Position numbers and translations under genes: made by a program
In this document: positions 11,744 to 47,360 of the stretch, one piece after another
How positions within the stretch are numbered: the stretch's first letter is position 1
How the letters are laid out: the number at the start of each line of letters is the position of its first letter
From: Parcubacteria group bacterium
Lineage (GTDB): Bacteria; Patescibacteriota; Minisyncoccia; Minisyncoccales; UBA10102
Direction: 5' to 3'
Length of the DNA: 64,000 nt
Assembly: GCA_016203945.1 (NCBI GenBank)
Contig: JACQLT010000002.1
Span: forward strand, 73,585-137,584
The notes under the pieces: model-generated
What the model was told of the DNA's origin: nothing
Database searches by the model: none
What the model saw: only the letters and a program-made list of their open reading frames with translations

Positions 11744-11756
11744 ATACTAATAAAGC

Positions 11757-20106: not shown

Positions 20107-20341
20107 GGGATTTCATTTTCTTTGTTATCGCTTCTTGGATTGCTGCGAAAGAGACGAGATCTGGAATTTCCCGATCGCCAAAACGCATGCCAAACTCTTC
20201 CTGGAGAGCCATGACAAGACGGAGATGCTGAAGCGAATCCCACTGGGCAATGGTATAAATGGATGCGTTGTCTTTGATGAGAGTGCGATCCACTTCCAAA
20301 GAATCCGCCATAATGCTTTTAATGCGTTCTTCCGTGCTCAT
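20093..20341 (-). CDS. acyl carrier protein
   Basis: About 80 aa with phosphopantetheine-attachment DSL motif (AQWDSLQHLRLVMALQEEFG); start taken at MSTEERIKSIM (ATGA overlap with FkbH gene). Confidence 0.7.
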   Translation of the reverse strand: MSTEERIKSIMADSLEVDRTLIKDNASIYTIAQWDSLQHLRLVMALQEEFGMRFGDREIPDLVSFAAIQEAITKKMKSHGKE

Positions 20342-22122
20342 ACGGCCTGCTGCGGAGTCATATGTATTGTCTGGAACCACGGAGGAAGGAAAGGAAGAGC
20401 GCCTTCTATATTCAATGCGTACACGTTCTCAGCTTGCTTTGTAAAACCTAGGTGCGGATAGAGATCTTTTACCACGGCATTCTTTGCGGTAGGAATATAT
20501 TCTCCAGTTATCAATGTTACTCCTTGTTCTTGCAGATACAACGCTACCTTAGAAATAACCGCTTGTTCAATCGTACGGCCAATGACCCGACAGCTCTGAA
20601 GAAACATATCAATACTCGCCTTCTTGTCTTGAATCTTTACAATGAGGAGGCCGACGACCCCGTTATCCCCGAATTTATCCTGTACAGACCAGGAAAAAAC
20701 CTGCCATTTGGGATCTTCCATGCGTCTCGTAATGTCTGCTTCAGAATACTTTTTTGTCGTAAGGTTGAACTGATTTGTCTTCTGGGTCATCTGGGCCAGG
20801 CGCGGAATCTGCATTTTCTCATTCACAAAAATCGTGAGACGCATGTCCAGGGTCCTCCAGAAATCTTCCAATGAAGCCGACTCCTGCTTTAGAGAGGCCC
20901 GTTTGCCCTGATCTTGATATATCCGCACCTTTTTCAGATCTTCTTGAGAATAGATATTCTTCTCAAATACGTGTAATTCCTGAAGGAACGCTGCGTATTC
21001 GCCAGCCCCCTCCGGAAGTTCCGGGGTATACACTTCGGGAACCCGTTCTCGCATTAATTCCCGCTCAACGGGGCTGTCGTCAAGGAATACCATGCTATCT
21101 AAACCGATATCGAGCTCTTGGGCTATTTCTTGGATTGATTGAGGTTTTAGGCCCCAGCCAATCTTTGTAATAACAAAATCCTCTAGGGCAAGAGGCATAT
21201 CGTCTTTCCTTTTTAGGAATGCTTCTTTGACGTCTTCAGGATTGTTTTTTGAGGCCATTGCAAGGACAATGCCTTTTGAAGAAAGATGTTTCAATTGAAG
21301 CTGAAAATCGTAATACGCGCGCCCGGGACCCGTTGGCCCAACGATGACGCGATCTGGCCCCTCCTCTCCCACAACCCCCCCCCACAGCGTATTATCAAGA
21401 TCAAGCACAATGCACTTTTTAGTTTTTCCGTAGGCGGCAAACATAACACGGGCAATCTCTTTTCCAATCTCTACCAAACCCTCTGAAGAAAAGGGTAAAG
21501 AAGAATGGTAGTACATATTCCAGTCGTAGAAACGCTTCTTGCCGATTCTTGAGGCGATGTCTTGAACATCAAGCATATATACCTCTTTATGCCGCGAGGC
21601 CGCAGCGGCAATGCTTCTGTTGAGATGGACTAACGCTTCTTTCTGGGAATAATCCCTCTGCGCATCCAGAATGCCATAATACCATCTGCCAGGATGATCG
21701 AATGTCGTAAGAATGATGCGGGGCTGTGATGTTCTGCGGGCTGCTGCAACAAGCTGCTCCATGCGATGAACAACTTCCTGCGTCTTCTTTTCCAGTTCCA
21801 AGGGAGTTATGTTGTGAAAGTCGTAGATGAGTTCGGGAAAAAATTCTTGGAGAGTGGCAAAGAGAAGAACGACATCATACGCGCCTTTGCCATACTCTCC
21901 TGCCGGGTCGAGAAGTTCCTGCTCAAATATGTTATAGCCGAAAAATCGGATGGTTGGCGCGAATCCTTCTGAAACAAGCTCGACCCGCACCACGGGCTCA
22001 ATGGGTTCCAGCGTGCACGAACGGAATACGGCAAGCGAAAGAGGCGTCCCTCGGGGTGTCTCGCCAATCTGTCTTGCTAGTTCCAAATAATCCTTGTACG
22101 TACTCTTCATTGTTTGGTGCAT
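20338..22122 (-). CDS. FkbH-like HAD-superfamily (subfamily IIIC) protein with C-terminal acyltransferase-like domain
   Basis: HAD motif LDLDNTLWGG, FkbH-domain architecture (about 590 aa). Confidence 0.7.
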   Translation of the reverse strand: MHQTMKSTYKDYLELARQIGETPRGTPLSLAVFRSCTLEPIEPVVRVELVSEGFAPTIRFFGYNIFEQELLDPAGEYGKGAYDVVLLFATLQEFFPELIYDFHNITPLELEKKTQEVVHRMEQLVAAARRTSQPRIILTTFDHPGRWYYGILDAQRDYSQKEALVHLNRSIAAAASRHKEVYMLDVQDIASRIGKKRFYDWNMYYHSSLPFSSEGLVEIGKEIARVMFAAYGKTKKCIVLDLDNTLWGGVVGEEGPDRVIVGPTGPGRAYYDFQLQLKHLSSKGIVLAMASKNNPEDVKEAFLKRKDDMPLALEDFVITKIGWGLKPQSIQEIAQELDIGLDSMVFLDDSPVERELMRERVPEVYTPELPEGAGEYAAFLQELHVFEKNIYSQEDLKKVRIYQDQGKRASLKQESASLEDFWRTLDMRLTIFVNEKMQIPRLAQMTQKTNQFNLTTKKYSEADITRRMEDPKWQVFSWSVQDKFGDNGVVGLLIVKIQDKKASIDMFLQSCRVIGRTIEQAVISKVALYLQEQGVTLITGEYIPTAKNAVVKDLYPHLGFTKQAENVYALNIEGALPFLPPWFQTIHMTPQQAV

Positions 22123-22457
22123 ATGACGAATGCCAAAGCATAATCTTTTACGTGAGCCATGCTTATCTGACAGGCAGGATGGCGGGCCTGCTTTTGCGGC
22201 AAGAATGCAATGGAGGGTTTTCCCGATGCGGATGTTCTGATCTCAACCTGCAGATAGGATACGGGCTTTTCGATCGCTTTGAATGTTGCTTCTTTTGCCG
22301 CAAAGCGCGCGGCAAAATGTTGGAGCGGAAATGCCTTGCTCTTGCAGAAGCGGATCTCTTTTGCGCTAAATACGCGCTTCATAAATTCTTGCTTCTTCAT
22401 TGCCTTGGCAAAATCAGGAAGAAATACGATATCAACGCCGACTCCTAATACAGACAT
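22107..22457 (-). CDS. acpS: holo-ACP synthase (4'-phosphopantetheinyl transferase, AcpS-type)
   Basis: MSVLGVGVDIV N-terminus and ASGKPSI motif typical of AcpS. Confidence 0.7.
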   Translation of the reverse strand: MSVLGVGVDIVFLPDFAKAMKKQEFMKRVFSAKEIRFCKSKAFPLQHFAARFAAKEATFKAIEKPVSYLQVEIRTSASGKPSIAFLPQKQARHPACQISMAHVKDYALAFVICTKQ

Positions 22458-22467: not shown

Positions 22468-23607
22468 CTATCTTCGATATCGCGCAATGATCTCGCGCAC
22501 TGCCCTGACAACAGCGCGTATTTCTCCCGATATCATCTTGGGAAACAACGGCAGGGTTATCGCCCGCTCATAATACTGTTCAGCAATGGGGAAATCGCCT
22601 TTCTTGTATCCGAATGTTTTTTTATAAAACGGATGGAGGTGAACCGGAATATAGTGCACCTGCACGCCAAGGCCTTTGTTGCGCAACGCTTCAAATATTT
22701 TTCTTCTTCCGGTTTTTAATAATTCCAAGCGCAGTCGGATGGGATACAAATGATACGCAGACCTGGCATACGCTTTCTCGACAGGAAGAATTATCTCTGA
22801 AATATTACGAAACGCTTGGTTATACCGTCGCACGATCTCTCTTCTCGTCTTTACGAACCTATCCAGTTTCTGGAACTGACTGAGGCCCAGGGCGCACTGT
22901 ATGTCAGAAATGCGGTAATTATATCCCGGCCTCTCTATCTCGTAATACCATGCTCCCCTCTCTGGTTTTCTGATAAGTCCGTGGTTTCGAAACGCCTTTA
23001 GAGTTCTGTAGAAATCCTTTCTGTCGGTAACAACCATTCCTCCTTCTCCCGTAGTAATGGCTTTTACCGGATGAAAGCTGAACATGGTCATATCGGAGAA
23101 TGATCCTACTTTCTTGCCTTTGTATTCTGAACCCAAGGCATGGGCGGCATCTTCAATAACCAGAAGATTGTGCTCTCTCGCGATCTTTTTTATGGTGTCC
23201 AGTTCTGCTGGATGACCTGCAAAATCAACCGGAGCCAACGCCTTGGTCCTTTTGGTAATTTTCTTTTTGATTGCTTCTGGGCTGATATTCAACGTATTCT
23301 CTTGAATATCGGCAAAGACGGGCTTTCCTCCGCAATACACAATGGCGTTCGCGGTCGCGGCAAACGTCATGGGAGTGGTGATAACTTCGTCTCCCGGCCC
23401 GATGCGAGCCGCAGCGTATGCCGCGTGCAAAGCTGCGGTTCCCGAAGAAAACGCCACCGCGTACTTTACTCCGCAATACCCGGCTATTGCCTGCTCAAAT
23501 TGCTCGACTCTTGGCCCCTGGGTAATCCAGTCGCTCTTTAATATACGCACAACGGAAGCAATATCGCTCCCGTCTATTTGCTGGTGGCCGTAGGGAATAG
23601 TTTTCAT
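22468..23607 (-). CDS. pseC: UDP-4-amino-4,6-dideoxy-N-acetyl-beta-L-altrosamine transaminase
   Basis: Strong identity to PseC blocks: AHALGSEYKGKKVGSF, FSFHPVKAITTGEGGMVVTD. Confidence 0.85.
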   Translation of the reverse strand: MKTIPYGHQQIDGSDIASVVRILKSDWITQGPRVEQFEQAIAGYCGVKYAVAFSSGTAALHAAYAAARIGPGDEVITTPMTFAATANAIVYCGGKPVFADIQENTLNISPEAIKKKITKRTKALAPVDFAGHPAELDTIKKIAREHNLLVIEDAAHALGSEYKGKKVGSFSDMTMFSFHPVKAITTGEGGMVVTDRKDFYRTLKAFRNHGLIRKPERGAWYYEIERPGYNYRISDIQCALGLSQFQKLDRFVKTRREIVRRYNQAFRNISEIILPVEKAYARSAYHLYPIRLRLELLKTGRRKIFEALRNKGLGVQVHYIPVHLHPFYKKTFGYKKGDFPIAEQYYERAITLPLFPKMISGEIRAVVRAVREIIARYRR

Positions 23608-24587
23608 ATCTCATGCTTCATTGTATCAAGCATCTTTTTCATTTCTTCCTTTGTGATGGCGCGCTCATTCCGGTCGCTCCGATATGAAAAACTGGCGGGG
23701 ACGGGCTTCCCTTCCTTTGAGTTTTCTTCTTTCCAGAAAGAAAATTCGGGAGCAATCACATACATATCATCAAACTCTCTTGTATGTCTTGCCTCTTCTT
23801 CGCAAATGAGCGTTTCGTGAAGCTTCTCTCCGGGGCGAATGCCGACGATTTTTACTTTGGCTTCGGGCGCCACCGTCTGAGCCAGATCAAGAACCCGCAT
23901 GCTCGGAACTTTTGGCACGAACACTTCGCCTCCATGCATGCGCTCAATGCATGTGATGACGAAACGAATGCCTTCTTCGAGCGAGATCCAAAATCGCGTC
24001 ATGCGCTCGTCGGTTACGGTAACTTCCCCTGTTTTGCGCTGTTCCAGGAATAGAGGAATGACAGATCCTGAAGAGGCGATCACGTTGCCGTAGCGAGCCG
24101 AGCTCAGACGCACGTTCTTATGGCTGCCGTATGCGTTTCCCTGAACAAAGAGTTTTTCCGCAACCATCTTTGTGGCCCCATACAAATTTGCGGGCTGCAC
24201 CGATTTATCGGTGCCGATGTTCATCACCAAGGGCACCCGCTGATCAATGGCGGCGTCAATCACATTGACGGCTCCTTCAATGTTGGTGCGTACCGCCTCA
24301 ATCGGATTGTATTCGCACACGGGGATATGCTTTAAGGCTGCGGCATGCACCACCACGTCAACGTCTGCCATAGAACGCTCCAGGCGACTCTTGTCTCGTA
24401 CGTCTCCGAGAAAAAAGCGCAGGCGCCTATCAGAAAACCTGCGCCCCATTTCAACGAGTTGCAGCTCGTTGTTGTCAAAAATACGCACGACCGCAGGGTT
24501 GTGTTCCTTGAGAATAACCTCGGCAAACTCCTGCCCAAAAGAACCCGCCCCTCCCGTTATCAAAATTGTTTTGCCTTGAAAAATCAT
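23604..24587 (-). CDS. pseB: UDP-N-acetylglucosamine 4,6-dehydratase (inverting)
   Basis: KTILITGGAGSFGQEF, RMTRFWISLEEGIRFV, GIRPGEKLHE blocks match FlaA1/PseB. Confidence 0.85.
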   Translation of the reverse strand: MIFQGKTILITGGAGSFGQEFAEVILKEHNPAVVRIFDNNELQLVEMGRRFSDRRLRFFLGDVRDKSRLERSMADVDVVVHAAALKHIPVCEYNPIEAVRTNIEGAVNVIDAAIDQRVPLVMNIGTDKSVQPANLYGATKMVAEKLFVQGNAYGSHKNVRLSSARYGNVIASSGSVIPLFLEQRKTGEVTVTDERMTRFWISLEEGIRFVITCIERMHGGEVFVPKVPSMRVLDLAQTVAPEAKVKIVGIRPGEKLHETLICEEEARHTREFDDMYVIAPEFSFWKEENSKEGKPVPASFSYRSDRNERAITKEEMKKMLDTMKHEI

Positions 24588-24627: not shown

Positions 24628-26523
24628 TCAACGAGGTGTCATCCAGCGCTCGTACCACATTTGAAACATGAGCAGGAACCAGAGCTTGTGCGCATCCACT
24701 CCCCTGCCTTCTCTATGGCGCTTGAGCGCGCGCTGAACCGCCCGCTGGTCGAATAACCCGTGCAGCAAAAGACGCTCTGGTGCCAGATACTCCTGAAGAA
24801 AACGGGAAAAATCCTGCCTAAGCCAGGCATGGATGGGAATGCCAAATCCCTGCTTGGGGCGCTCGATGAGTTCCTCTGGGATGTAGCGCGCAAGAATCTT
24901 CTTGAGTAAATATTTGCTTTGTCCCTTTTTAAACTTGATGGAACTTGGAACCCGAGCAACGTACTCGGCTATCTTTTGATCAAGAAATGGCTCTCTCCCT
25001 TCCAGGCCGACTGCCATGGTCGCCCGATCTGCTTTTACCAAGATATCGTCTGGCAGGTACACGCGAAAATCCGCGACTTGCATCTTGGCGAACGCATCAA
25101 GAGAACCAAGCTCATTAAACCCGTAGAAACTGCTGTTGGCATCAAATGGAAATCGAAGAAGCTGCAAAAGCTGCTGGCGCGTCCAGAAGGAGTTGGCGGT
25201 GCGGAATATGTCTTCAAATGAGCGTTCGCGCAGAAGATTTCTTAGTTTATACACCTTATTTTTTAAGTTCGTATGTTTTTTTAAAGAAGGAGAAAAAAGG
25301 GCTAGTCCAACAGCGAGCGAACGAGAGAGCGCTGGCGGCAACGCCCCAAATTTTCTCTGGTACCACTCCAAAGCCCCGTATTTGGGGTATCCGCCAAAAA
25401 GCTCGTCTCCCCCATCTCCGGAAAGAACTACTTTTACCTGTTCTCTCGCAAACTTGGAAACCAGATGTGTCGGGATTGCCGAGCTGTCTCCAAACGGCTC
25501 GTCATACATGTCGGGAAGCTGGGGAATGACGTCGGCTGCCATTTCTTTGGTGCAGTAGAGCTCGTGGTGTTCGGTCCCAAAATATTGAGCTATCTTCTTT
25601 GCGAATGGCGCCTCGTCGTATCCTTTTTCATGGAACCCAATTGTGAACGTCTTTATGGGAGCTCCCGCCTGTTTCTGCAAGAGAGCGGCTATCGTGGAAG
25701 AATCTAGGCCGCCGCTCAAAAATATCCCGACTGGCACGTCTGCCACCATGCGGTAGCGAAACGATTCAAGAAGAATGCCTTCCAATTCTTCTATGATTTC
25801 CTCTTCGGATTTCTGAAAAGGTCCAAGCTGGTAAAAGGAGGCGATGTCCCAGTATCGCACTTCCTTTGAGTTGCCGTGCGTATCAATCTCAAGATAGGAG
25901 CCCGGCTGCAGCTTGAAGGTGTTCTGAAATATAGTATGGGGCGCCGGAATGTAGCCGAGCTGCAGAAACAAAGCAAGCGCTTCGTAATTGATCTCTTTCT
26001 TGAACTCGGGGTGTTTGTGAAGCGCCTTGAGTTCTGAAGCAAAAAGCAAGAGGCCGTTTTTTTGGTAATAGTACAAAGGTTTTACGCCCGCCCGGTCCCT
26101 GCACAAGATGAGTTTGCCGGAGTTGGCATCCCAAATGGCAAAAGCGAACATGCCCCGGAACCTTGCGACACTTTCCATGCCCCATTCTTCATACGCCTCA
26201 AGAATGACTTCTGTGTCCGAGGCGCTCTTAAATTTCCTGCCTCGTTTCTCAAGCTCGCTGCGAACTTCTTGAAAATTATAGATCTCTCCATTGAACGCGA
26301 TCCAAAGAGTTTTCGTTTTGTTTGCCATGGGCTGATGCCCCAGCGAAGACAAGTCAATGATGGCAAGACGCGTATGACCCAGACCGATGCCGTGTTCTTG
26401 AGAAACAAAAACGCCCCGGTCGTCAGGACCCCGATGGCTGAGGCATTCTGCCATGCGCGAGAGCACGCTCTCCTCAAGAAAAGAGCGCTGCCGAGCGTCA
26501 AAAATACCGACAATGCCGCACAT
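24628..26523 (-). CDS. asparagine synthetase B-family glutamine amidotransferase
   Basis: MCGIVGIF Ntn-amidotransferase start, PP-loop SGGLDSS. Confidence 0.85.
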   Translation of the reverse strand: MCGIVGIFDARQRSFLEESVLSRMAECLSHRGPDDRGVFVSQEHGIGLGHTRLAIIDLSSLGHQPMANKTKTLWIAFNGEIYNFQEVRSELEKRGRKFKSASDTEVILEAYEEWGMESVARFRGMFAFAIWDANSGKLILCRDRAGVKPLYYYQKNGLLLFASELKALHKHPEFKKEINYEALALFLQLGYIPAPHTIFQNTFKLQPGSYLEIDTHGNSKEVRYWDIASFYQLGPFQKSEEEIIEELEGILLESFRYRMVADVPVGIFLSGGLDSSTIAALLQKQAGAPIKTFTIGFHEKGYDEAPFAKKIAQYFGTEHHELYCTKEMAADVIPQLPDMYDEPFGDSSAIPTHLVSKFAREQVKVVLSGDGGDELFGGYPKYGALEWYQRKFGALPPALSRSLAVGLALFSPSLKKHTNLKNKVYKLRNLLRERSFEDIFRTANSFWTRQQLLQLLRFPFDANSSFYGFNELGSLDAFAKMQVADFRVYLPDDILVKADRATMAVGLEGREPFLDQKIAEYVARVPSSIKFKKGQSKYLLKKILARYIPEELIERPKQGFGIPIHAWLRQDFSRFLQEYLAPERLLLHGLFDQRAVQRALKRHREGRGVDAHKLWFLLMFQMWYERWMTPR

Positions 26524-26568
26524 AGAGCTAAGTGGACACAGACACAGAATTTCTATATCATATAATCG

Positions 26569-28924
26569 TATGCTCTACAAGAAGGATTGGGGACGCCGTA
26601 TTCTTTTTTTGTGCTTTGCAGTAATTCTTTTTCTCCCCCTATTAGACATCCCCCCTTGGCTCTCTCCGCCCGACTGGGGGAAAGCCATAGTCTTTAGAAT
26701 TGCTGTTTCTCTTTTGTGGATGTATGTTGCATGGACCGTATGCACCGGAAAAAAACGGATAGGAACAATTTCTCTCAAGAGCATACCAGGGCTGCTTATT
26801 ATCGTTCTTGTGTTACAGGTACTGGTGTACTTGCTTGCTGCTGTCTTTTCTCCAGATCCTCTTATGAGTTTTCTGGGAGATCCGATAAGATCCGGGGGTC
26901 TCGTGAATTATGCTTTTCTGGCATCGTTTGTATTTCTCTTGCTCTTCTTCCTGGAATCTGACGACTGGCAGACCGTTATGAAATGGGCTATTTGGGGAGC
27001 AGTTGGAGTAAGCGCCGTAGCCATTGTTCAGTGGCAAGGCCTTCTCCCGGAACTCTTTGTCGCCACCGGCACAAGGCCCACAAGCACCCTTGGAAGCACC
27101 ATGACCCTTGGCCTATTTCTTATTTTGTTTGTATTTCTGTCTCTTACCAATAAAAAGTGGGGCCTCCCGCTTGCCGCGCTCTTTACCTTTGTGATTGCGC
27201 TCACGGAAACAAGGGCGGTATTTCTGGGCTTGGGAATCGGCCTGTTTTTCTTCCTTTTCTGGTATCCGACAAAAGAGAAAGCGCGAGCTCTCTTCATGAA
27301 GTACGTCCTTATAGGAACGCTTCTCTTGGGAGGAGTGTTGCTGCTTGCGGCAAACCTCTCGCTCTCATCCCCGGATCTTCTAAAACGCCTAAAAGTTCCA
27401 AATTTCCAAAACGAACCGCGTTTTGCCGCATGGCAGGTTACGCTTCAGGCTATCAACGCAAGCCCTGTCTTGGGATATGGGCCTGAAAACTTTGCCATCG
27501 GTTTTGACAAATTCTACAATCCCGCGCTTCCCAACCTTAGCAGAGTGCCGGGTTCTGGCGTCACCACGTGGTGGGACCGCGGCCACAACATTCTTTTAGA
27601 CACTGCCATGCAAGGAGGGATAGGAGCCGTTCTTCTTCTCTTGCTGCTCTGGATGCTTCTTTTCTGGGGCCTTCAGAAGGTAAAGAAAGAGAAGGGTGAG
27701 CTTGCGCTTAAGGCTCACGGCCTGCAGGCCGCATTCCTTGGGTATGGGGTGGCAAATCTTTTCAGTTTTGAAACCTTTTCCACCCAGCTCATCTTCTTTA
27801 CTCTTCTGGCTTATTCTTTGCATCTGATTTCTTTACGGAGGGACCTGCCGCCAAAGCGAAGTTCGGGCGAGGCAGGTCCCTCCAAGCTACGAGTGCCCAT
27901 CTTCATACTTGTGGGCTTCGCTTTCCTCTGGTTCAATTGGAATTATACGCTCAAGCCATTGGCTGCGAACGCAAATATTATAGAAGCAAAAGCGCTTGCT
28001 AAAAGCGGCAACTGCCAAGAAGCCCTGCCTCTCGCAGAGAACGCCGTGCGTGGGGCCCCGGGTCCCATGAAATCATACGCTGCGCTTTCTTTGGGAGATA
28101 TTATTTTAGATTGCCAAAGCCAGCTGCCAGACAAACGCCCAGAGTTGGCGCAAAAAGCAATTGAGGCCTTGCAAACAGCAGATGAAAGCCGGCCGCTCTT
28201 TCCAAGAGCATGGATAGCGATGGGGGGCTTCACCAACATATTGCTGGAAACAGCTTCAAGAGAAGGAAACCAGGAAAAAGTGAAGGGGGAAGCTGCAAAT
28301 GCCGATATGTTTTTCAGAAAGGCCCTTGAGTTGAGCCCCAAGCGCCAGGAAACATACATTGAATGGGTAAAAACCTTCTTGATTCAGGGCGATTATGAGG
28401 GGGCTAAAGAAAAAATCGGAGAGTGTCTTTCGCTCAACATCAACTCTGCTCACTGCTGGTTTCTCTTGGCAAGAGCTGAAATTTCTTTGGGGAATGCAGA
28501 GCAGGGATCTCATGCCCTCAAGACAGCTGAACTGCTTGGATACAATCCGACATCAAGACGATCGCTTCTCCAGTTAGCCAATGCGTATCTTGCCTCTCAA
28601 AACTACCAAGCAATGGCAAAGATATACGAAACACTGACATCTTCCAATTACGACCCCGTGCCTCGCGCGTATTATGAGACCCTAATTGCGCTCTATCAAC
28701 AACTCGGCCAAAGAGAAAACATACTGCACGCAGCAGGAAGAATGTATCTTGTCTTTGGGGATTACGAAAAATCGAAGGTCACTGCCAAGGAGTGCATTGC
28801 CTTCAATGCCCAATCTGCCTATTGCTGGTACTTGCTTGGAAAAGCTGAGTCTGCCTTAGGTAATGAAGAAGAAGGAGAAAGGGCAAAGGCGAGAGCCCAG
28901 GAACTCTTTGAAATAAAACAATGA
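26569..28924 (+). CDS. Wzy_C (O-antigen ligase/O-OTase-like) polytopic membrane domain fused to C-terminal TPR repeats
   Basis: Multi-TM N-terminal half with TETRAVFLGLG and periplasmic-loop GHNILLDT motif; TPR-like C-terminal 350 aa. ORF track start 26453 overlaps asnB, so ATG at 26569 used. Confidence 0.7.
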
Positions 28925-31179
28925 AAATACCCCTCCGTACCTTGACTATATCGCTGTTCTGTCTGGCAGCCGCATTGCCCATTGTTTCCACCAATGCGCT
29001 CTTTCACCCGCAGGCATGGGCTCAATCAAGCGTATTTCGGGTCTTGACTGCAGGGCTCGTATCCCTGCTGCTTTTGCAACAGCTGCTGCGACCTTTTGAC
29101 AAAAAAGCGCTGCTTGAGCGCCTTGGTTCAGCAAAAATAGTCCTCATTCCCCTCTCGCTCTTTGCTGTAGTGCTGGCAATCGCAACGCTCTTTTCCCAAG
29201 ATCCGTATTTTAGTTTCTGGGGCACGCCCGCTCGTGGCTGGGGACTACTTAACGACTTTCTCCTCATGCTCTTTGCAGTAGGAGCGTTTCTTTTCCTCTC
29301 TCATGAGGACTGGAAAAAGGTGTGGGGCGTGGCTCTTGCGGCAGGGGTCGGGGTGGCGGGCATTGCCCTGATCCAAACCTTCGGGCTGCTGCCTTCTGTA
29401 TTTAACGCAACGGGTCTCGGAGCTCCCGGCACTCTGGGCAGCTCCATTGTCTTGGGCCTATACCTGGTATTGCTTGCATTTGCGGCTCTTGCCTTGAGAA
29501 AATTTCCGCTTTTTCTATTCTTTGCTTTTGCTGTTGCGCTCACGCTTTCCCGCAGCTCCTGGATTGGATTTGCCGCAGGTATTATATTCTTTCTGGCTTT
29601 CTTTCCTCGAAAACAAGTCCGATGGCGCGCTGCCGCTCTTATTCTGCTGGCGTGCGGAGTGCTTGTACTCCTCATTATAAACCTTGTTGCCCTCCCCTCT
29701 TTTGTAAAGGACATTCCTTTGCTATCTCCTTTATTGTCCCGCGCTTGGCAGGATCTCCAGTGGGAGAATGTTTTTGACCTGTCGCGCATCTTGGCTTGGC
29801 AAATTGAACTCAAAGCTCTGGCAGAAAAACCCCTCCTTGGCTGGGGACCCTATAACTCTTCCATCGGGTTCAACAAATACTTTGACCCGATTGTCACCCA
29901 GGCGCACGCTCGCCCCTATTTTGATACTTCCCACAACGAATTTCTCGATATTGCCCTAGGGTCGGGATTCTTGGGTCTTGCTGCCTATCTTTGGTTCATA
30001 GGGGCGTTTCTGTGGAAACTACAGAAATCGGCGCTTGAGAATAGGTGGCAGGCGAGAATGGTGCAAGCCGGTATCATAGGGGGGCATGCCGCGCTCTTTT
30101 TCTTTCCCTTTATGTTCTCCACGCATCTGCTGTTTTTCCTCCTCATTGCATACGGACTGCATCTGTCCGCTGCGGCTCCACCTTTGCCAATGACTGGAGG
30201 CGGAACGAAAACAGAGCTTCCTTCAAAAAAGCTTGCCGTATTCGGAGGAGCATCTCTCCTACTGGTGTCCTTTGCTTTCTTTTTCGCGATACAGCCCCTT
30301 GCATGGAACAGAACCCTGAACGTTGCGGCACAGCAGGCAGATCGAGGGAAGTGTTCCTTGGCGCTTCCCGCGGCAGAAGAAGTCCTTGAGCGCGGCAAGA
30401 ACAGCTTCTTTTCATACTGGATACATCTCAAATATGTAGAGGCTGTGGATTCCTGTATTGGGAGTCAGGAGGAAGGGGTTCAGCAGATATTATCTGAAAA
30501 AGCTGCCGCTGCCCTCAATGAAGAGCTGCTTGTTCGGCCCAAAGAACCAAGGACCTGGATATTGCTTGGAGGATATTTCAATAATTTGGCCGCTTTTTCC
30601 AAAGACTCTCAAGAACGCTCGGACTTTCTCAACCAGGCAAGAACTGCCTTTGAAAAAGCGAGGGGATTAAGCCCAAGCCGCTATGAAACCTTTTTAGAAT
30701 GGACAAGAACCGAAATGCTTTCAAAAAACTATGAGGCGGCGAAACAAAAGGCAGCTCAATGCATTATGCTCAACCCGAACTCGCAAAACTGCTGGATTAG
30801 ATTATCTCTTGCCCAATTCGCGCTCAAGAATACCGAGGGCGGGCTGCACGCCTTAGACAAGGCGCGCGAGGGGAATATTACGATAGCAACAACGATACAA
30901 AGCGAACAGGTTCTCATAGAAATCTTGAGGCAAACACTTGCTTTGCCGCAGAAACCCTACCAGGATGTGGTATTTTTATTGAGCACCCTTATCGACCTCA
31001 ACCCAAACAACCCGCAGTACTACGCTTCCCTTGCCGCCGTGTACCTTGAGCTTGGAGAATATGGAAATGCGGGACAAGCTGCACTCGCGGTGCTTGAGCT
31101 GCAGCCGGAAAACGAAGAAGCAATACGGCAATTCTTCCAGCAACTCCCTAAAGAATTCCGCCCGGACAGATTCAAATAA
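28921..31179 (+). CDS. second Wzy_C + TPR paralog
   Basis: LTLSRSSWIGF, SHNEFLDIALGSG loop motif, TPR C-terminus; ATGA overlap with preceding paralog. Confidence 0.7.
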   Translation: MKIPLRTLTISLFCLAAALPIVSTNALFHPQAWAQSSVFRVLTAGLVSLLLLQQLLRPFDKKALLERLGSAKIVLIPLSLFAVVLAIATLFSQDPYFSFWGTPARGWGLLNDFLLMLFAVGAFLFLSHEDWKKVWGVALAAGVGVAGIALIQTFGLLPSVFNATGLGAPGTLGSSIVLGLYLVLLAFAALALRKFPLFLFFAFAVALTLSRSSWIGFAAGIIFFLAFFPRKQVRWRAAALILLACGVLVLLIINLVALPSFVKDIPLLSPLLSRAWQDLQWENVFDLSRILAWQIELKALAEKPLLGWGPYNSSIGFNKYFDPIVTQAHARPYFDTSHNEFLDIALGSGFLGLAAYLWFIGAFLWKLQKSALENRWQARMVQAGIIGGHAALFFFPFMFSTHLLFFLLIAYGLHLSAAAPPLPMTGGGTKTELPSKKLAVFGGASLLLVSFAFFFAIQPLAWNRTLNVAAQQADRGKCSLALPAAEEVLERGKNSFFSYWIHLKYVEAVDSCIGSQEEGVQQILSEKAAAALNEELLVRPKEPRTWILLGGYFNNLAAFSKDSQERSDFLNQARTAFEKARGLSPSRYETFLEWTRTEMLSKNYEAAKQKAAQCIMLNPNSQNCWIRLSLAQFALKNTEGGLHALDKAREGNITIATTIQSEQVLIEILRQTLALPQKPYQDVVFLLSTLIDLNPNNPQYYASLAAVYLELGEYGNAGQAALAVLELQPENEEAIRQFFQQLPKEFRPDRFK

Positions 31180-31203: not shown

Positions 31204-31244
31204 GAAATCAAAGGCCGCCCCATGTGAGGCGGCTCTTTGATTTC
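31204..31244. terminator. bidirectional hairpin between convergent genes
   Basis: GAAATCAAAGGCCGCC-CCATGTGA-GGCGGCTCTTTGATTTC near-perfect inverted repeat; U-rich arms on both strands. Confidence 0.4.
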
Positions 31245-31303: not shown

Positions 31304-34300
31304 TTACGGGTTCACCAAGCTGCCTGCGTAGATGTCTGGCCTGAAGATGATGGTTCCTCTGCGGTAGGCGTTTGAGGTTCCGTCAACGCCGAACTCCACA
31401 TTGGAATCAGCAACATCGCTCAGCCACAGCTGAATCTGGTCGCCGTCAGTGTCAAGCTCGGTCGTGTCGCTGTAGATCAGCAAGGTCTTGGTCTGGCCTG
31501 CTGGCACCCTCAGCTCAGTTGTCGCGAAGGTAAAGGTTACGCTTTCGCTGGTGGACTCGTCTACCTGACCTTCTTCACCCGTACCAACTGCCGAAATTGC
31601 GTTGCTGTATATGGTGCCGTCCGGATCCTGCAAGGTGAAGGTCTCTTCTGTGCCGTCAGACGTGCTGATGGACTGTGTGATGTTCACCACCAGCTTGTTG
31701 CCGTCTCCGTTCTGGAAGGTGACATCGTCCGAACCCACAGCAGTCACGTCAAACTTGGCAAGAAGCGTGTTTGCTGAAGGAATGAGGTTGCCCGAAGGCG
31801 TGGTAGAGTTGACCGTGAACTTCGGATACGCGCGGAACATCCGGTGCGTGTTGGAAGAACCTGTCGGGGCGGCATCGCTTACCGTAGTGCCAGACCCTTT
31901 GCCCGTGGTATCCACGTCACGAATGGCAACTCCGGTCGCAACGTCGTTTTGCGCTGCTGCCGACGTGTTGCTGAAGAAGTCCGCTTTCACCGTGATCAAT
32001 TGGTAGCCGTTTGACGGAATCGTCAATGTGCCATCGTCAAACGTAATATCACTAAGTGACTGAGGCGAGGCTCCTCCCGCAGATACCGACTTGAGCAAGG
32101 TTGAGCCGTTGTACAGGTGCAGGGTTTGAATGAAGTTGCTCCCCGATACCTGAAGGCTTATCTCGTCAAGGTCAAGGTCTTCCACGGCGTCCGACGCAAG
32201 CCGGAATATGCCAATGGTGTTGCCTGTTGTCGAGGCCGCAAAGAGACTGCTGGACGGCTGTGAGGAGTCAACTGACGTTGTCAGCGTGCCTCCTGTCACC
32301 ACAGACATGACCTGACCAGCTCCTGAGCGGGTTTCGGTAATGTCGTTTCCGGTATCAGCTCCTGTCGCGGTTGTCGCGGTTTCAGCGACCTGGTGAGCAT
32401 CGGTGAGATTGCCGGAAGCTCCGGTGTCGGCGTTGGCCTTAAGGTCGGCCACCACGGCAAGCTCCATAGTAGTTCCTTTCTTGACAATCAAGGTCTGCGT
32501 CAAGGTGAAGGCAATGGTGTCTGCCGTGCCGTCTGTGGTGCTGTCATAGCTCGTGGTGTTAGACACCTTTGTTTCGTAGACATCTCCCCTTGAGCTTGAG
32601 GCAGTCGTCAGGTTTGCCCAAATCTCCACATTGATCATGTCGTCAGCCGGAGCTCCTGTGCCAGGGTCGTTCTGTATGGTGATGGAACTCACCTGCACGT
32701 CTTCTCCGGAAGCTCCCGCGTCAAGCGCAAGCTTGGCAAAGATGAAGTCACTCGTACCAACTGCCACGTCTCGCGCAGCCGGGGATACCAGAGTATTCAC
32801 TACCAAGGCTCCCGCTTTTACGGTCTGCGTATTGCCAGCAGCCGCACTGGCGGTCGGAGTTGCGGTAATGGAGTTGTTGCTCGTCATTCCGGTCACCGTA
32901 AGATCGGTGTCTGGATCAGCAATTGCCGCTTGAATGGTGTCGCCTGCAGAGGTAGCAGTCGCGATTCTTCCTTTCACCGTGTACTTGTGCACGCCTACAG
33001 GAACAATGATGGTGTCGGTGTAGGTTACCGATACCTCGTAGGTGGTGCCGTTCGCGGTGTAATCCGTAGTGCTCGGATCCAAGGGACCTGCTACCAGAGT
33101 GCCGTTCTCGTCAAACAGCTTCACTGCCGTAAGTTCGGCGTCAAGCATTGTACCCAGGTCAAAGGAAATTCTGACCGAGGTAAGCTTTACCGACTCACCA
33201 ATCGCGTTGAGGTCCCACGTTGCCAAGTTCTGGTCTGCTGCCTGGGCAATGTTGCCCGTGGGAGCAGTGGTAGAGGACTTGGAAACGCTCAGGGCTCCCG
33301 AGTTGATGGTCTGGTTGTTTGCAGCCAACCCGTCGTTGGCATTGGTCCAGTCAGCAGCGTCGTTGCCGTCCGGAGTGATGTACATGCCGTAGGTGTTGCC
33401 CTTTGTGGATATTAACACATCACTGCCGTCCATGAGGTCGGCGTTTATTGTCAAACTGGGGCCGTCCACGACGTCAAGCATGATCTTGAATCTTCGGCTG
33501 TCTCCCTTGGCAATCACCATGTTGAGGTTTGACCACGAGGCCTTGCCTTCTCCAGACCATTGCGTGGTCCCGAGCGACTGGCTCTTCGATACGTCGTACA
33601 GCTCAATGTTTGTGGTGTCGTCAAGAGAAGCAGAACCCGACTCCATCACGGTAATCTGCTCTAATGTCACGTCTTCTGTTGACCCTACCGTCACTTTGAA
33701 GGCGTTCACCGTAACATCGGTGTCGCCAACATCGGGCGTGGAGTCAACGAGCGCGCCGTCTTCCTGCACGTCAACCGTGCCGATGGTCAAGGCAACAGTG
33801 GTAAAGTCGTTCCCTTTTATGGGGAAGGCTCCGGTCACCGTTGCTGATCCGGCGCTGATGTCTGCTGCAGAGGCAATACCCATTGCCACGGTCTTCGCTC
33901 CTGCGGTTCCGTCAACAATTCCTACGCGAATGAAAAACGCCTTGGAAGTGTTGGCAGGAATCTTGAGGTTCGTGGAGAAGGTCATCTGGGCTCTGCTGTT
34001 TGTGTTCAGGGAACCCAAGCTGCCTACCCTCACTCCGTCCTCGTCAAGGATTCTGATGTTTTCCACGTCCGCATTTGCGGTCAACCCATAACGGGTGAGC
34101 CAAATGGTGGAAATAGCAACATCGGATGCTCCTGCGCTCAGGAAGAACTTCGTTACGTTAACGTTTCCTGCGTCTGCCACAGTAGCTGAAGCTGGCGTGT
34201 CAGAAGCCAAGGATACGCTTAGCGTTCCAGCTTGAGCCGGAGGCGTTGGCGCTCCTGGCGTGCTGGGCGTGCTTGGCGTGCCGGGCGTGCTTGGAGCAGT

Positions 34301-34732
34301 TCCTGCCACGGCAGTGTACTTTGCCCGAGAAATCGGTCCGAAGTATCCTACCGCGGGGCTCACTCCGTTCGCAGCCTGCCATGCTGCTACTGCTGCTTGC
34401 GTGCGGGAACCGTAAAAAGTGGTCTCAGAGCCAGGAGATCCTGCGCCCGAAGAAGCCAGCTGGTGTCCCGCACCATTCAGGTACTGTTGCAAGCACATTA
34501 CGTCATCACCCGAAGAAACTCCTACGTAGAGGCTGCGGGTAAAGGTGCAAGCGGTTGCGCCAGCTCCTGATCCTTGCTGTGCCTGAAGCTGTTGAAGCTG
34601 GACCAGCAAGGCGTCAATCTGCGCTTGCAATTCTGCTATTGTCACTGCGCCTGCGGGCATTGGAGCTACCATGCTCACGGCAATGCTCGCTGCGGCTGCA
34701 GTGGTAATTGCTTTCTTTAAGAATTTACTCAT
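31304..34732 (-). CDS. large secreted cell-surface (S-layer-like) protein
   Basis: Signal peptide MSKFLKKAITTAAAASIAVSMVAPMPAGA. Coiled segment. PG_binding_1-like block LQQYLNGAGHQL...TQAAVAAWQAANGV. Linker APSTPGTPSTPSTPGAPTPP. About 900 aa of Thr/Ser/Val/Asp-rich repeats, no Cys. Confidence 0.7.
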   Translation of the reverse strand: MSKFLKKAITTAAAASIAVSMVAPMPAGAVTIAELQAQIDALLVQLQQLQAQQGSGAGATACTFTRSLYVGVSSGDDVMCLQQYLNGAGHQLASSGAGSPGSETTFYGSRTQAAVAAWQAANGVSPAVGYFGPISRAKYTAVAGTAPSTPGTPSTPSTPGAPTPPAQAGTLSVSLASDTPASATVADAGNVNVTKFFLSAGASDVAISTIWLTRYGLTANADVENIRILDEDGVRVGSLGSLNTNSRAQMTFSTNLKIPANTSKAFFIRVGIVDGTAGAKTVAMGIASAADISAGSATVTGAFPIKGNDFTTVALTIGTVDVQEDGALVDSTPDVGDTDVTVNAFKVTVGSTEDVTLEQITVMESGSASLDDTTNIELYDVSKSQSLGTTQWSGEGKASWSNLNMVIAKGDSRRFKIMLDVVDGPSLTINADLMDGSDVLISTKGNTYGMYITPDGNDAADWTNANDGLAANNQTINSGALSVSKSSTTAPTGNIAQAADQNLATWDLNAIGESVKLTSVRISFDLGTMLDAELTAVKLFDENGTLVAGPLDPSTTDYTANGTTYEVSVTYTDTIIVPVGVHKYTVKGRIATATSAGDTIQAAIADPDTDLTVTGMTSNNSITATPTASAAAGNTQTVKAGALVVNTLVSPAARDVAVGTSDFIFAKLALDAGASGEDVQVSSITIQNDPGTGAPADDMINVEIWANLTTASSSRGDVYETKVSNTTSYDSTTDGTADTIAFTLTQTLIVKKGTTMELAVVADLKANADTGASGNLTDAHQVAETATTATGADTGNDITETRSGAGQVMSVVTGGTLTTSVDSSQPSSSLFAASTTGNTIGIFRLASDAVEDLDLDEISLQVSGSNFIQTLHLYNGSTLLKSVSAGGASPQSLSDITFDDGTLTIPSNGYQLITVKADFFSNTSAAAQNDVATGVAIRDVDTTGKGSGTTVSDAAPTGSSNTHRMFRAYPKFTVNSTTPSGNLIPSANTLLAKFDVTAVGSDDVTFQNGDGNKLVVNITQSISTSDGTEETFTLQDPDGTIYSNAISAVGTGEEGQVDESTSESVTFTFATTELRVPAGQTKTLLIYSDTTELDTDGDQIQLWLSDVADSNVEFGVDGTSNAYRRGTIIFRPDIYAGSLVNP

Positions 34733-34814: not shown

Positions 34815-35603
34815 TCAATCTCCACTCTTCGTGGAGCCAACCTTCAAAAGATATTCCAACGCCGTCTCGTACTCTCCTGCCTCGGAAGCCGCGACTGCTT
34901 TTGAGACCAGCGCTGCCTGCTCTTCATTGAGCGTCCGAGTTTCCAAATCTTTCAGCTCGCTCTCTACCACCACCCTAGTGGCTTCGGCCAAGCTGTCATT
35001 CTCCCCTTCCCCGATACTTGTTCCGAGCACCCGTTCCAGTTTAGATCTCTCTTTCTGAAGCTCCAGCAAAACTTTTCCCGCCTGGAGCGCGACTCGCGGC
35101 TCCTGATCAACCAGCCCTGGCAATGCCTGCGACACCTCAGAAACCCTGCTCTGGTATCCCTTGATTGCGGCCGCAAGATCCTTAGTTCGGTTCTGCGCAG
35201 TCACCTGCTTTAACTCATCTAATCTGCGCTGGGCAAGCTCCAGCTGCACGAACGCGCGATCTTTGCTCGGAGAAAGCGCGAACTCCACCTGTTCCCTAGT
35301 TGACTTTACGGAGTACAAAGGGTCTCCTGGCAAGCTGGAAGAAGAAATCTGCAGTGCGAGGCTTACTCCCACCACAAGCATGAGGCCTGCAAACGCAAAA
35401 GCCGGTTTCTCAAAGTATCTTGTTGCCAGCACTAACTCTCCCAGTATACGGGAGGCAAGAGACCCCTGCAATATCCTTGGTTCGACCAAGCTATTCACAC
35501 CTATCTGGCTCATCACCTGGCTTTTAACGGAAAAAACCCAGTCCTGTCTGGGTGTAATGCTCTTCAAAAGGTTTAGCTTCTCTATGGTCTGACGATGTTC
35601 CAT
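34815..35603 (-). CDS. DUF5667-like single-pass membrane protein, probable anti-sigma factor
   Basis: One TM (FAFAGLMLVVGVSLAL), coiled C-terminal region; immediately downstream of ECF sigma gene. Confidence 0.4.
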   Translation of the reverse strand: MEHRQTIEKLNLLKSITPRQDWVFSVKSQVMSQIGVNSLVEPRILQGSLASRILGELVLATRYFEKPAFAFAGLMLVVGVSLALQISSSSLPGDPLYSVKSTREQVEFALSPSKDRAFVQLELAQRRLDELKQVTAQNRTKDLAAAIKGYQSRVSEVSQALPGLVDQEPRVALQAGKVLLELQKERSKLERVLGTSIGEGENDSLAEATRVVVESELKDLETRTLNEEQAALVSKAVAASEAGEYETALEYLLKVGSTKSGD

Positions 35604-35647: not shown

Positions 35648-36130
35648 TTACACTAATCTCTCCTTCAATGCCTCTAGCGCTCTATGGACTCCTACCCTCA
35701 CATTTGTTTCAGTTTTGCCGGTAATTTGGGCTATCTCGGATATCGAAAGCTCGTCTAAATAGCGCCAGATGACCAGGTTTTGATACTCGTCATTGAGCTC
35801 AGCAAGAGCCTTCTGTACCTGTTCCATATCCGAGCTTACGGCTAGCGTATCGGCAAAATGGGAATCTTCCGCTATATCAAGCACATTGCCCTCTAAAGAG
35901 ACCGTGGAAACCTGCTTTTTCCGATAGTGGTCTGCTATGACGTTCCGGGCAATACCATACAGAAAAGCCCTATCATTGTCAATGCGGGAACTGTTGAGTT
36001 GTTTCCAGAAACGCAAGAACACCTCAGAAGACAAATCCTCGGCAAGATCCCTGGAGCTCACCTTCAGGTAGCAGAAGCGGTAGATGCTGGCAACGTGTTC
36101 GTCGTATACTTTACTGAACCTTTCTTTCAT
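35648..36130 (-). CDS. RNA polymerase sigma-70 factor, ECF subfamily
   Basis: Region 2 (FLRFWKQL...YGIARNVIADHYRK) and region 4 HTH (LSISEIAQITGKTETNVRVGVHRA). Confidence 0.8.
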   Translation of the reverse strand: MKERFSKVYDEHVASIYRFCYLKVSSRDLAEDLSSEVFLRFWKQLNSSRIDNDRAFLYGIARNVIADHYRKKQVSTVSLEGNVLDIAEDSHFADTLAVSSDMEQVQKALAELNDEYQNLVIWRYLDELSISEIAQITGKTETNVRVGVHRALEALKERLV

Positions 36131-36156: not shown

Positions 36157-36795
36157 CTATCTCTGTCCTACTATTCCTAACACTTTTTCCACAGAAACTC
36201 CTGTTCCGGCACTGATTCTATAAAATATATCATTCCATTCCCCTTCCCGGATCACAAGGTTGCGCTTGAGCAGATCATCCAGATCCCGCCTCAGGGTGCG
36301 CTTGGTAACCTCGGGAAGGAGCTTTTTGAGCTCCCAGACCTGAACTTTTTCTTTGTACCTTAGGATCTCAAGCATCTTCTCCTGCCGGCTGTTAAGCTCC
36401 TTGGGATTAGACACAGAAGAGGTCTGCCTGAGCGAAGGTGCCCGCTGAAGCGAAGTTCGGGTCAAAAACCTTCGCACTTTAGCGTATTCTCGCTCCAGAA
36501 CAACGAAGTTTTTATCGTTAATAACCCGCAGGCGCTTTACGCTCTGAAGAAAGCCCAAAAGCATTTGCAGCTCAGCTGAAGCGCGGATAATCGTTTCGTT
36601 CTTTTCTTCGGGATTTTGGTTCCTGGTCAGGAAAATGAGATGTATGAGAAGACGGCTTGCCGATTCCTCAATCTTGGAACGTAGAACAGAGCCCCCGGAA
36701 AGAAGCTCGGTTACTCGGTACAACCCGAACGTAAGTCGCATAAAAAAGTCCGAGTCCATAAACTTGAATGTACCAAAACCAAGATACTCGGTCAA
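36157..36795 (-). CDS. hypothetical regulator: N-terminal four-helix-bundle-like domain plus C-terminal DeoR-like winged HTH
   Basis: C-terminal SRQEKMLEILRYKEKVQVWELKKLLPEVTKRTLRRDLDDL resembles DeoR HTH; N-terminal half resembles the four-helix-bundle family. Confidence 0.35.
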   Translation of the reverse strand: MTEYLGFGTFKFMDSDFFMRLTFGLYRVTELLSGGSVLRSKIEESASRLLIHLIFLTRNQNPEEKNETIIRASAELQMLLGFLQSVKRLRVINDKNFVVLEREYAKVRRFLTRTSLQRAPSLRQTSSVSNPKELNSRQEKMLEILRYKEKVQVWELKKLLPEVTKRTLRRDLDDLLKRNLVIREGEWNDIFYRISAGTGVSVEKVLGIVGQR

Positions 36796-37992: not shown

Positions 37993-38045
37993 CCACAAGG
38001 GGCTATGTTGCGTCAATCTTTGAAGGGTTGGTAGAATGGAATGGT

Positions 38046-47345: not shown

Positions 47346-47360
47346 CTGCATCATACAACT

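Follow-up and report, generated by a model that had tools for sequence, protein, structure and literature searches.

What do two overlapping genes, placed between a locus of sugar genes and the gene of a large surface protein, do for an uncultivated, ultra-small bacterium? The question is raised by a 64,000-nucleotide stretch of DNA (hereafter the window) from a Parcubacteria group bacterium (contig JACQLT010000002.1, positions 73,585 to 137,584). The two genes, ORF A and ORF B (open reading frames A and B), encode membrane proteins in which a Wzy_C domain is followed by tetratricopeptide repeats (TPR). We propose that they are extracytoplasmic transferases of lipid-linked glycans, of the Wzy_C (WaaL/PglL) kind, and that they act as dedicated protein O-oligosaccharyltransferases (O-OTases) on the neighbouring surface protein. 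The probability that we assign to this interpretation is about 0.55.

Two overlapping paralogous genes

The pair and its borders comprise the following features (aa, amino acids; nt, nucleotides; TM, transmembrane).

26524-26569, intergenic: 46-bp gap between the divergent asnB-like gene and ORF A; sigma-70-like hexamers at 26533-26566 (+), a consensus match only
26570-28924, + strand: ORF A, 784 aa; membrane domain aa 1-464, 13th TM helix, TPR domain aa 465-784 (nt 27962-28921)
27173-27640, + strand: Pfam Wzy_C (PF04932) in ORF A, aa 202-357; 68.4 bits against a gathering threshold of 31.7
28921-31179, + strand: ORF B, 752 aa; membrane domain aa 1-460, TPR domain aa 461-752 (nt 30301-31176)
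29509-29991, + strand: Pfam Wzy_C (PF04932) in ORF B, aa 197-357; 73.2 bits against a gathering threshold of 31.7
31213-31234, intergenic: GC-rich hairpin where ORF B and the surface-protein gene converge; T-runs on either strand make it resemble a bidirectional intrinsic terminator

The two genes share an ATGA, in which the start codon of ORF B (28921-28923) overlaps the TGA of ORF A (28922-28924). Translation of ORF B is probably coupled to that of ORF A through this overlap. The proteins are full-length paralogs, featuring 33% identity across ~747 columns (BLASTP, E = 2e-86). An earlier interpretation of the bare letters, here called the sequence-only reading, had already described adjacent, overlapping paralogs. 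The motifs that it quoted are found in place (TETRAVFLGLG in ORF A and LTLSRSSWIGF in ORF B), as are the loop motifs DRGHN (ORF A) and DTSHN (ORF B), and its Wzy_C assignment holds in the profile search, in which both proteins pass the gathering threshold. Two of its figures need correction. ORF A begins at 26570, one base after the position given, and the TPR regions, estimated at ~350 aa, span about 320 aa in ORF A and about 292 aa in ORF B. A longer version of ORF A, starting at 26453 in the mechanical list of reading frames, was discarded because it overlaps the start (26523) of the divergent asnB-like gene. The start at 26570 is also that of the database protein (P0012), which has 784 aa, and homologues align from the Met encoded there.

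The C-terminal third of each protein matches several TPR families in Pfam. Scanning ORF A and ORF B against NCBIfam returned no model at its cut-off and weak TPR-type matches only. The exact window protein is held by NCBI (P0001) under the title 'O-antigen ligase family protein [Parcubacteria group bacterium]'.

Catalytic residues and fold of the membrane domain

Residue and topology statistics were obtained from a family alignment of 69 sequences, and are given in ORF B numbering. R105, G108, R289, G307, G309, H338 and G349 are invariant in all 69 members, and D335, N339, W293 and R211 are conserved in at least 90% of them (R211 in 62 of 69). ORF A keeps all of the equivalent residues (R107, R215, R284, D336, H339 and G350). 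In the window, the conserved ORF B codons map as follows.

29551, + strand: R211
29785, + strand: R289
29923, + strand: D335
29932, + strand: H338 (R105 and G349 belong to the same set)

An Arg/Arg/His set and an H-[NSQ]-x9-G motif in the outside loops characterise the Wzy_C/O-antigen-ligase superfamily. Both are recovered in an hhalign alignment with WaaL of E. coli K-12 (NC_000913.3), in which R215, R288 and H338 of WaaL fall opposite R211, R289 and H338, and the H-N-x9-G spacing is preserved. The alignment is weak (probability 18.6%, E = 0.0013, 15% identity) and serves to map residues, not to establish kinship.

A profile built from 32 N-terminal domains was compared with all PDB sequences, and two real matches were obtained. 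The top match, over profile positions 114-366, is 9rmk_A (E = 4.1e-12), deposited as 'Oligosaccharyltransferase'. The second is 7tpg_B, the WaaL ligase of Cupriavidus metallidurans (E = 2.2e-9). In the 9rmk alignment, H349 stands opposite the family His (H338), and the Arg of a PRQIEW stretch opposite R289; the 9rmk numbering is presumably that of Neisseria PglL, with which it is consistent. The predicted structure has WaaL as its best fold match, in agreement with the relationship put forward by the sequence-only reading. Members of the superfamily have a WaaL-like fold and a polytopic core in which TM9 and TM10 are joined by a large extracytoplasmic loop, and both features are present.

Topology and the TPR domain

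Hydropathy and the structural model concur in 12 core TM helices followed by a 13th (aa 437-460), which extends into the TPR domain as one long helix. Across the 69 homologues, inside-assigned loops carry 22.6 Lys and Arg residues per 97.8 residues (0.23 per residue), compared with 3.65 per 55 residues (0.066 per residue) in the short outside loops. From the positive-inside rule, the number of TM helices and the co-variation of Cys residues, on which the sidedness rests, we strongly infer an N-in, C-out arrangement of 13 TM helices. Both the TM9-TM10 loop, which includes R289, D335 and H338, and the TPR domain would thus be extracytoplasmic. A cytoplasmic TPR region without a periplasmic catalytic loop, which the sequence-only reading regarded as fatal to its proposal, is not what was found; the TPR domain is predicted to lie outside, on the same side as the catalytic loop.

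The C-terminal half of the model is made of ~14 helices, corresponding to ~7 TPR-like pairs (residues 478-739), and the TPR domains of OGT and SPY are among its fold matches. Over the 69 sequences, the TPR domain and the membrane domain are equally conserved. The TPR domains contain the following Cys pairs.

ORF A, + strand: 482/515, 619/629 and 742/752
ORF B, + strand: 478/512 and 614/624

C478 and C512 are both present in 55 sequences and both absent in 13, and C614 and C624 are both present in 63 and both absent in 5; a single partner was found once for either pair. C614/C624 and its counterparts form a C-x9-C motif within TPR units (CLSLNINSAHC and CIAFNAQSAYC in ORF A, CIMLNPNSQNC in ORF B), the third pair being extra in ORF A. 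In the other conserved pair, ~34 residues separate the partners. Because the Cys residues of a pair co-vary as units, they fit an exported domain that bears disulfides, and point to TPRs that are extracellular and disulfide-stapled.

Linkage to a peptidoglycan-binding surface protein

ORF B converges on a conserved group of genes, listed below (ECF, extracytoplasmic function; HTH, helix-turn-helix).

31304-34732, - strand: surface protein, proposed acceptor, 1142 aa, convergent with ORF B
34815-35603, - strand: DUF5667 protein, anti-sigma-factor-like, with a single TM helix at aa 66-89
35648-36130, - strand: ECF-type sigma factor (Sigma70_r2 and r4_2)
36157-36795, - strand: HTH (DeoR-like) protein, with which the conserved module ends

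The surface protein has a signal peptide and a coiled coil, followed by a PG_binding_1 domain; a disordered Pro/Thr/Ser linker (aa 146-163) then leads to roughly seven immunoglobulin (Ig)-like beta-sandwich domains. It is acidic and contains 24% Ser and Thr. Its AlphaFold2 model (mean per-residue confidence, pLDDT, 86.8) describes a wall-anchored Ig-repeat protein. Foldseek matched the model to the Ig-like arrays of adhesins (PrgB, antigen I/II C123) and to macroglobulin or integrin domains. With such adhesin-like folds, the protein may be a fibrillar adhesin or, alternatively, a surface-layer (S-layer) protein. More than 400 Patescibacteria proteins, uniformly 1,100-1,270 aa long, belong to the same family, and are titled 'hypothetical' or 'peptidoglycan-binding protein'. 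An S-layer has been seen by cryo-electron microscopy on Ca. Nealsonbacteria cells, and the authors suspected peptidoglycan-binding proteins (bioRxiv 10.1101/2022.04.20.488981).

The ORFs of all 84 loci collected (numbered with the prefix L) were searched with the neighbours of the pair in the window, and enzymes with a phmmer score of at least 250 were regarded as close relatives. A surface-protein homologue is found on the opposite strand, convergent and within 6.5 kb, in 26 of the 29 close relatives that have at least 5 kb of downstream sequence, and the gap to it does not exceed 400 bp in 15 of 32 loci. Where the downstream flank reaches at least 8 kb, the DUF5667 gene is present in 19 of 24 loci and the ECF sigma factor gene in 20 of 24, usually followed by the HTH gene. 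Many Parcubacteria genera share the order surface protein, DUF5667, ECF sigma factor, DeoR-like HTH protein. In the DUF5667 protein, ~65 cytoplasmic residues precede the one TM helix, as in an anti-sigma factor; given this resemblance to an anti-sigma partner, the surface protein may be under envelope-stress-type control.

This linkage bears on a different view of the acceptor, in which ORF A and ORF B are analogues of WaaL that ligate glycans to a non-protein component of the monoderm envelope, be it a glycolipid anchor, peptidoglycan or a teichoic-acid-like polymer. The TPR domain would then be a scaffold for contacts with the machinery of wall synthesis or export, and the surface protein co-regulated cargo. 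TPR domains do serve as scaffolds in polysaccharide export (cited in PMC2943079), and WaaL, the best fold match, has its Arg/Arg/His residues aligned with those of the family. Moreover, no LCP-type ligase was found in the inspected loci, so that some other enzyme must complete any wall-glycopolymer pathway, and distant family members lie beside a phosphoglycosyltransferase (PGT) gene with no surface-protein gene nearby. Against this, a convergent association with one protein family in 26 of 29 loci is hard to explain without a functional tie, the profile ranks the O-OTase above WaaL, and no lipid A-core or lipopolysaccharide genes occur among the window ORFs scanned. To our knowledge, a lipid A-core/lipopolysaccharide pathway is not expected in Patescibacteria. 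We regard ligation to a non-protein acceptor as doubtful.

Constant enzyme, variable glycan loci

Glycan genes were found upstream in at least 29 of 38 close loci using a limited query set. Inspection with Pfam revealed that three of the nine seemingly glycan-empty loci carry genes for a TagD-like cytidylyltransferase, an FkbH-like protein, a methyltransferase, a B12-radical-SAM protein or a Wzx flippase, which are of the glycan type too. The sequence-only reading had expected its candidates to keep company with the surface protein and with sugar genes, and would have lost ground to homologues devoid of the latter; both associations are borne out by these counts.

The content of the upstream locus varies from genome to genome. 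For instance, the window and L001 feature a pseudaminic-acid set, and L003, the enzyme of which is 31% identical, features a complete Bac_transf, GT4 and Wzx cluster plus a separate 11-TM Wzy-like candidate. The family enzyme always maps to the edge of the glycan locus, on the opposite strand. A conserved enzyme adjacent to differing glycan loci behaves as a ligase or OTase would, and not as a Wzy polymerase.

It is nonetheless conceivable that the pair are Wzy-type polymerases of a surface polysaccharide, with the TPR domain as a built-in co-polymerase or scaffold. Pfam Wzy_C occurs in O-antigen polymerases too, the gene sits at the edge of glycan loci, and tandem paralogs (up to four, in L073) are reminiscent of serotype-specific diversification. 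Yet Wzy enzymes normally co-vary with their repeat unit, whereas the orthologs, ~30-35% identical, remain collinear across genera next to wholly different glycan loci (Pse; GT4/PGT/Wzx; TagD/FkbH), and lie outside the cluster on the other strand. Separate polymerase candidates exist (the 11-TM protein of the L003 cluster, a 9-TM protein in the window), no Wzz or other polysaccharide co-polymerase (PCP) acting as chain-length regulator was seen in the loci inspected, and the conserved R/R/H set is typical of ligases and OTases. A polymerase function is accordingly quite unlikely in our judgement; both this assignment and that of WaaL sensu stricto rank below the O-OTase reading.

Distant relatives, with scores of about 110-160, have no surface-protein neighbour, and in at least 11 loci they are arranged head-to-head with a large Bac_transf PGT gene. 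A distant subfamily (about 110-135 bits to ORF A/B) accompanied by a PGT of ~430-500 aa was noted in L053, L060, L062, L064, L065, L067, L068, L074, L075, L080 and L083. Its members may be general rather than dedicated transferases.

The sugar locus in the window

The sequence-only reading had placed the pair downstream of a sugar locus and had recognised that locus as one for nonulosonic acid. The former holds for position only, because the locus lies entirely on the minus strand and diverges from ORF A at the 46-bp gap. The latter is upheld by PseB, PseC and PseI equivalogs, each scoring above its NCBIfam cut-off.

866-26523, - strand: glycan locus, ~25 kb, divergent from ORF A
866-1993, - strand: PseI, 374 bits (NCBIfam cut-off 340)
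4468-5517, - strand: second NeuB-like synthase, below both the PseI and the NeuB cut-offs
5514-6299, - strand: CMP-sugar cytidylyltransferase (CTP_transf_3, Pfam)
22468-23607, - strand: PseC, 499 bits (NCBIfam cut-off 424)
23604-24587, - strand: PseB, 444 bits (NCBIfam cut-off 408)
24628-26523, - strand: AsnB-like amidotransferase, first gene of the locus, next to ORF A

The locus also includes FkbH-like, MaoC/SDR, ATP-grasp (PylC-like), HAD and GT2 genes, methyltransferases (among them a TylF O-methyltransferase), an APH-type kinase, a class-III aminotransferase and PAPS-reductase-like genes. Neither PseG nor PseH was recognised in it. By its predicted gene content, the locus makes decorated pseudaminic acid, and the extra genes suggest that the nonulosonic acid is unusually decorated, or that two different ones are formed.

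Within the locus (10562-12467, - strand), a 236-aa GT2 protein with weak matches to polyprenyl-phosphate glycosyltransferases of the ArnC/PpgS/PgfS type is encoded beside a 393-aa, 9-TM protein that matches no Pfam or NCBIfam family. The two could be a lipid-phosphate-sugar synthase and its GT-C-like or Wzy-like partner, and constitute a second route of glycan transfer.

Size, spread and duplication of the family

A word-indexed homologue search retrieved 11 relatives only, and an exhaustive profile search against 1.84 billion representatives was needed to reveal the family, which comprises 2,659 proteins at E<1e-30. Of the 150 top matches, nearly all have about 720-880 aa and are collinear over their full length. 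A scan of one genome per GTDB species yielded more than 579 loci. The best 80 of these are almost all from Patescibacteria (Staskawicz-, Nealson-, Wildermuth-, Giovannoni-, Niyogi-, Portnoy-, Kuenen- and Campbellbacteria, Paceibacterota). Four loci (L011, L017, L027 and L073) come from genomes binned as Woesearchaeota, Ignavibacteria, Lutibacter or Gammaproteobacteria; three of the contigs measure 2.6-6.7 kb and the gammaproteobacterial one 36 kb. These occurrences are probably binning errors. Full-text literature searches returned no paper on the Wzy_C-TPR architecture in Patescibacteria. The kind of enzyme is already known; what the survey delineates is a large, nearly phylum-restricted clade with a fixed design of 13 TM helices and a disulfide-bearing TPR domain, and with a conserved partner module.

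ORF A represents the conserved type, as it outscores ORF B against most single-copy relatives. An ortholog of the B type was found in one other genome only (L001, of which L002 is a second copy of the same locus), which also carries the A-B tandem with an ATGA-style overlap. On these comparisons, ORF B is a recent, lineage-specific and faster-evolving duplicate of ORF A. Tandem duplicates have arisen separately in L008, L012 and L024, and L073 has four copies. These four Wzy_C-TPR genes follow each other in a row (L073, 3300-12783), as do two in L070 (7744-12193), and several GT4 genes come next; here the family has expanded locally far more than in the window. In-frame TAA codons split otherwise full-length Wzy_C-TPR genes in L033 (nt 11642-11644) and L022 (nt 10802-10804), and the gene is in two or three pieces in L046, L047, L055 and L058. 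Such split genes may be pseudogenes or assembly errors.

The status of ORF B as a faster-evolving, lineage-restricted duplicate, as well as the in-frame stops in a few members (L022, L033), would fit a non-catalytic or regulatory role of ORF B, or of both proteins, in which the TPR domain helps the surface protein to fold or assemble, as a chaperone or assembly factor, and the Wzy_C domain is a mere membrane anchor. We hold this to be very improbable, given that all invariant residues of the catalytic loop are retained in both ORF A and ORF B, and that conservation of the membrane domain equals that of the TPR domain over the 69 sequences.

A proposed mechanism and its weight

According to the O-OTase reading, the variable sugar locus next to the pair would build a glycan on polyprenyl diphosphate, which in the window would be decorated pseudaminic acid, and the lipid-linked glycan would be flipped to the outer face of the membrane. 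There, the outside loop between TM9 and TM10 (R289, D335 and H338 in ORF B), in concert with R105 and R211, would pass the glycan en bloc to side-chain hydroxyl groups of the acceptor, the ~1,150-aa peptidoglycan-bound Ig-repeat protein encoded by the convergent gene. The 13th TM helix would set the ~300-aa disulfide-stabilised TPR domain outside, where it would dock the acceptor protein or a partner. ORF B might add a second donor or acceptor-site preference, or pair with ORF A.

Several lines of evidence point to the surface protein as the acceptor. The enzyme is very tightly linked to this one gene family while glycan loci vary, and the family profile favours the O-OTase 9rmk over WaaL. Dedicated O-OTases such as TfpO, TfpM and PglS are typically encoded beside their substrate (PMC12645811). 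Furthermore, WsfB, the predicted S-layer O-OTase of a monoderm bacterium, shows the same Wzy_C and TPR design (PMC2943079).

Other observations weigh against this interpretation. O-OTases and WaaL-type ligases are not distinguishable by sequence and fold (PMC12645811), and the PglL_A and Wzy_C_2 domains, markers of PglL and PglS, are absent from ORF A and ORF B in a Pfam scan at E <= 0.1. The catalytic loop (aa 281-337) is modelled at low confidence. The Pfam scan of window ORFs turned up no priming PGT and no Wzx flippase. The existence of distant relatives that adjoin a PGT gene and no surface-protein gene implies that the Wzy_C-TPR architecture is not tied solely to the surface protein, and the conserved gene order could reflect shared regulation of cell-envelope genes instead of an enzyme-substrate tie. 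A strong Pro/Thr/Ser-rich linker is found in only 29 of 114 surface-protein homologues, and the idea of this linker as a universal acceptor site was down-weighted for that reason. Finally, the surface protein is a putative acceptor, which we infer from sequence and gene context. The suggestion of the sequence-only reading, that the pair are candidate protein O-glycosyltransferases or ligases, has accordingly gained in family assignment, fold, residues, topology and synteny, and stays as it was with regard to the acceptor.

A broader proposal, which we advance tentatively and at somewhat less than even odds, is that Parcubacteria and related Patescibacteria possess a hard-wired module for decorating their surface. 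It would comprise the TPR-Wzy_C O-OTase, a single peptidoglycan-anchored Ig-repeat substrate and the ECF sigma/anti-sigma/HTH unit, next to a freely exchangeable glycan cassette. The ~1,150-aa substrate would then possibly be the long-sought S-layer or sheath protein. If such a module exists, cassette swapping and transferase duplication would diversify the surface that these episymbionts show to their hosts and to phages.

Other genes near the module

A cytoplasmic protein of ~240-300 aa, which has a Rossmann-like GxGxxG motif in its N-terminal part and matches no Pfam family, is encoded upstream of the Wzy_C-TPR gene in 14 of 38 close loci (e.g., L003, 9214-9933, and L001, 6495-7436). In several genomes, its gene is directly adjacent on the opposite strand; no homologue was found in the 64-kb window.

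Further putative surface proteins are encoded in the window. A family-5 solute-binding protein (SBP_bac_5; 45284-47242, + strand) carries PG_binding_1 at aa 403-443, and would be wall-tethered, which fits a monoderm envelope. Near the module, a 684-aa protein with three lamin-tail domains (LTD) is encoded at 38028-40082 (+ strand). L003 has, in a similar position (19086-22235), a protein of more than 1,400 aa with LTD and CHU_C domains, and the two mark a conserved surface-protein candidate.

The GTG from which the RNase J ORF (47265-49043, + strand) starts in the mechanical list lies within a tRNA-Leu(CAG) gene (47259-47345, + strand), indicating that the true start of RNase J is located further downstream.

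Significance

Patescibacteria, which live attached to other microbes, account for much of bacterial diversity, and their surface molecules are almost unstudied. The locus offers a candidate enzyme (ORF A/B), a candidate donor pathway (pseudaminic acid in the window, other cassettes elsewhere) and a candidate acceptor (the Ig-repeat protein of 1,100-1,270 aa), which could be a component of the S-layer or sheath seen by cryo-electron microscopy. The type of enzyme is expected, as databases already say 'O-antigen ligase family protein'; the noteworthy part is the conserved module of enzyme, putative substrate and regulator, which provides a handle on the surface layer of ultra-small bacteria. A TPR-guided O-OTase with a defined partner would also extend the small set of O-linking enzymes for bioconjugate production.

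Comparison with known systems

The closest counterpart is WsfB of Paenibacillus alvei, a predicted S-layer O-OTase in which a Wzy_C membrane domain is followed by a C-terminal TPR region (PMC2943079). WsaB of Geobacillus stearothermophilus, together with the TPR protein WsaA, is similar. Shared features are the combination of Wzy_C and TPR, the monoderm host, the setting in a locus for surface-layer glycans and the proposal that a lipid-linked glycan is passed en bloc to a protein of the cell surface. The gene wsfA, an asparagine-synthase homologue, figures in the S-layer glycan cluster of P. alvei (PMC2943079), and ORF A too has such a neighbour. The likeness to WsfB and WsaB was judged by described architecture and locus, not by sequence, the pair lying between a Pse locus and the gene of a peptidoglycan-binding surface protein. 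In contrast to WsfB, the ORF A/B family is nearly confined to Patescibacteria, and has a fixed size of ~750-800 aa and two conserved Cys pairs in the TPR domain. Its gene order with an ECF sigma module and a PG_binding_1/Ig-repeat protein is hard-wired.

PglL-class enzymes (9rmk) provide the best profile match among solved structures, have catalytic His and Arg residues that align with those of the family, and use lipid-linked glycans at the outer face of the membrane. They differ in being general OTases of diderm Proteobacteria with no linked substrate gene, whereas ORF A and ORF B have a long, multi-repeat TPR domain. As PglL_A and Wzy_C_2, the markers of the class (PMC12645811), were not detected, ORF A and ORF B fall outside the PglL/PglS class in its definition by accessory domains, although they would work like O-OTases of the WsfB/PglL type. 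The WaaL ligases of C. metallidurans (7tpg/7tpj) and E. coli K-12 share the 12-TM core, the large outside loop, the R/R/H set and the H-N-x9-G motif, but act on lipid A-core, and have neither a 13th TM helix nor a TPR domain. ORF A and ORF B are therefore not WaaL in the sense of the acceptor.

TfpO/PilO, TfpM and PglS resemble the pair in that the gene of a Wzy_C-family OTase directly adjoins that of the one protein it modifies (PMC12645811). These enzymes act on type IV pilins or ComP and have no TPR; no pilin gene is found next to ORF A and ORF B. OGT and SPINDLY, in which a glycosyltransferase is fused to a TPR array thought to choose protein substrates, are analogous in function only. The eukaryotic TMTC1-4 proteins are likewise TPR-bearing protein glycosyltransferases. 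The catalytic domains of TMTC, OGT and SPINDLY are unrelated to Wzy_C, and their donors are nucleotide or dolichol-phosphate monosaccharides, in contrast to the polyprenyl-diphosphate oligosaccharides that ORF A and ORF B would use.

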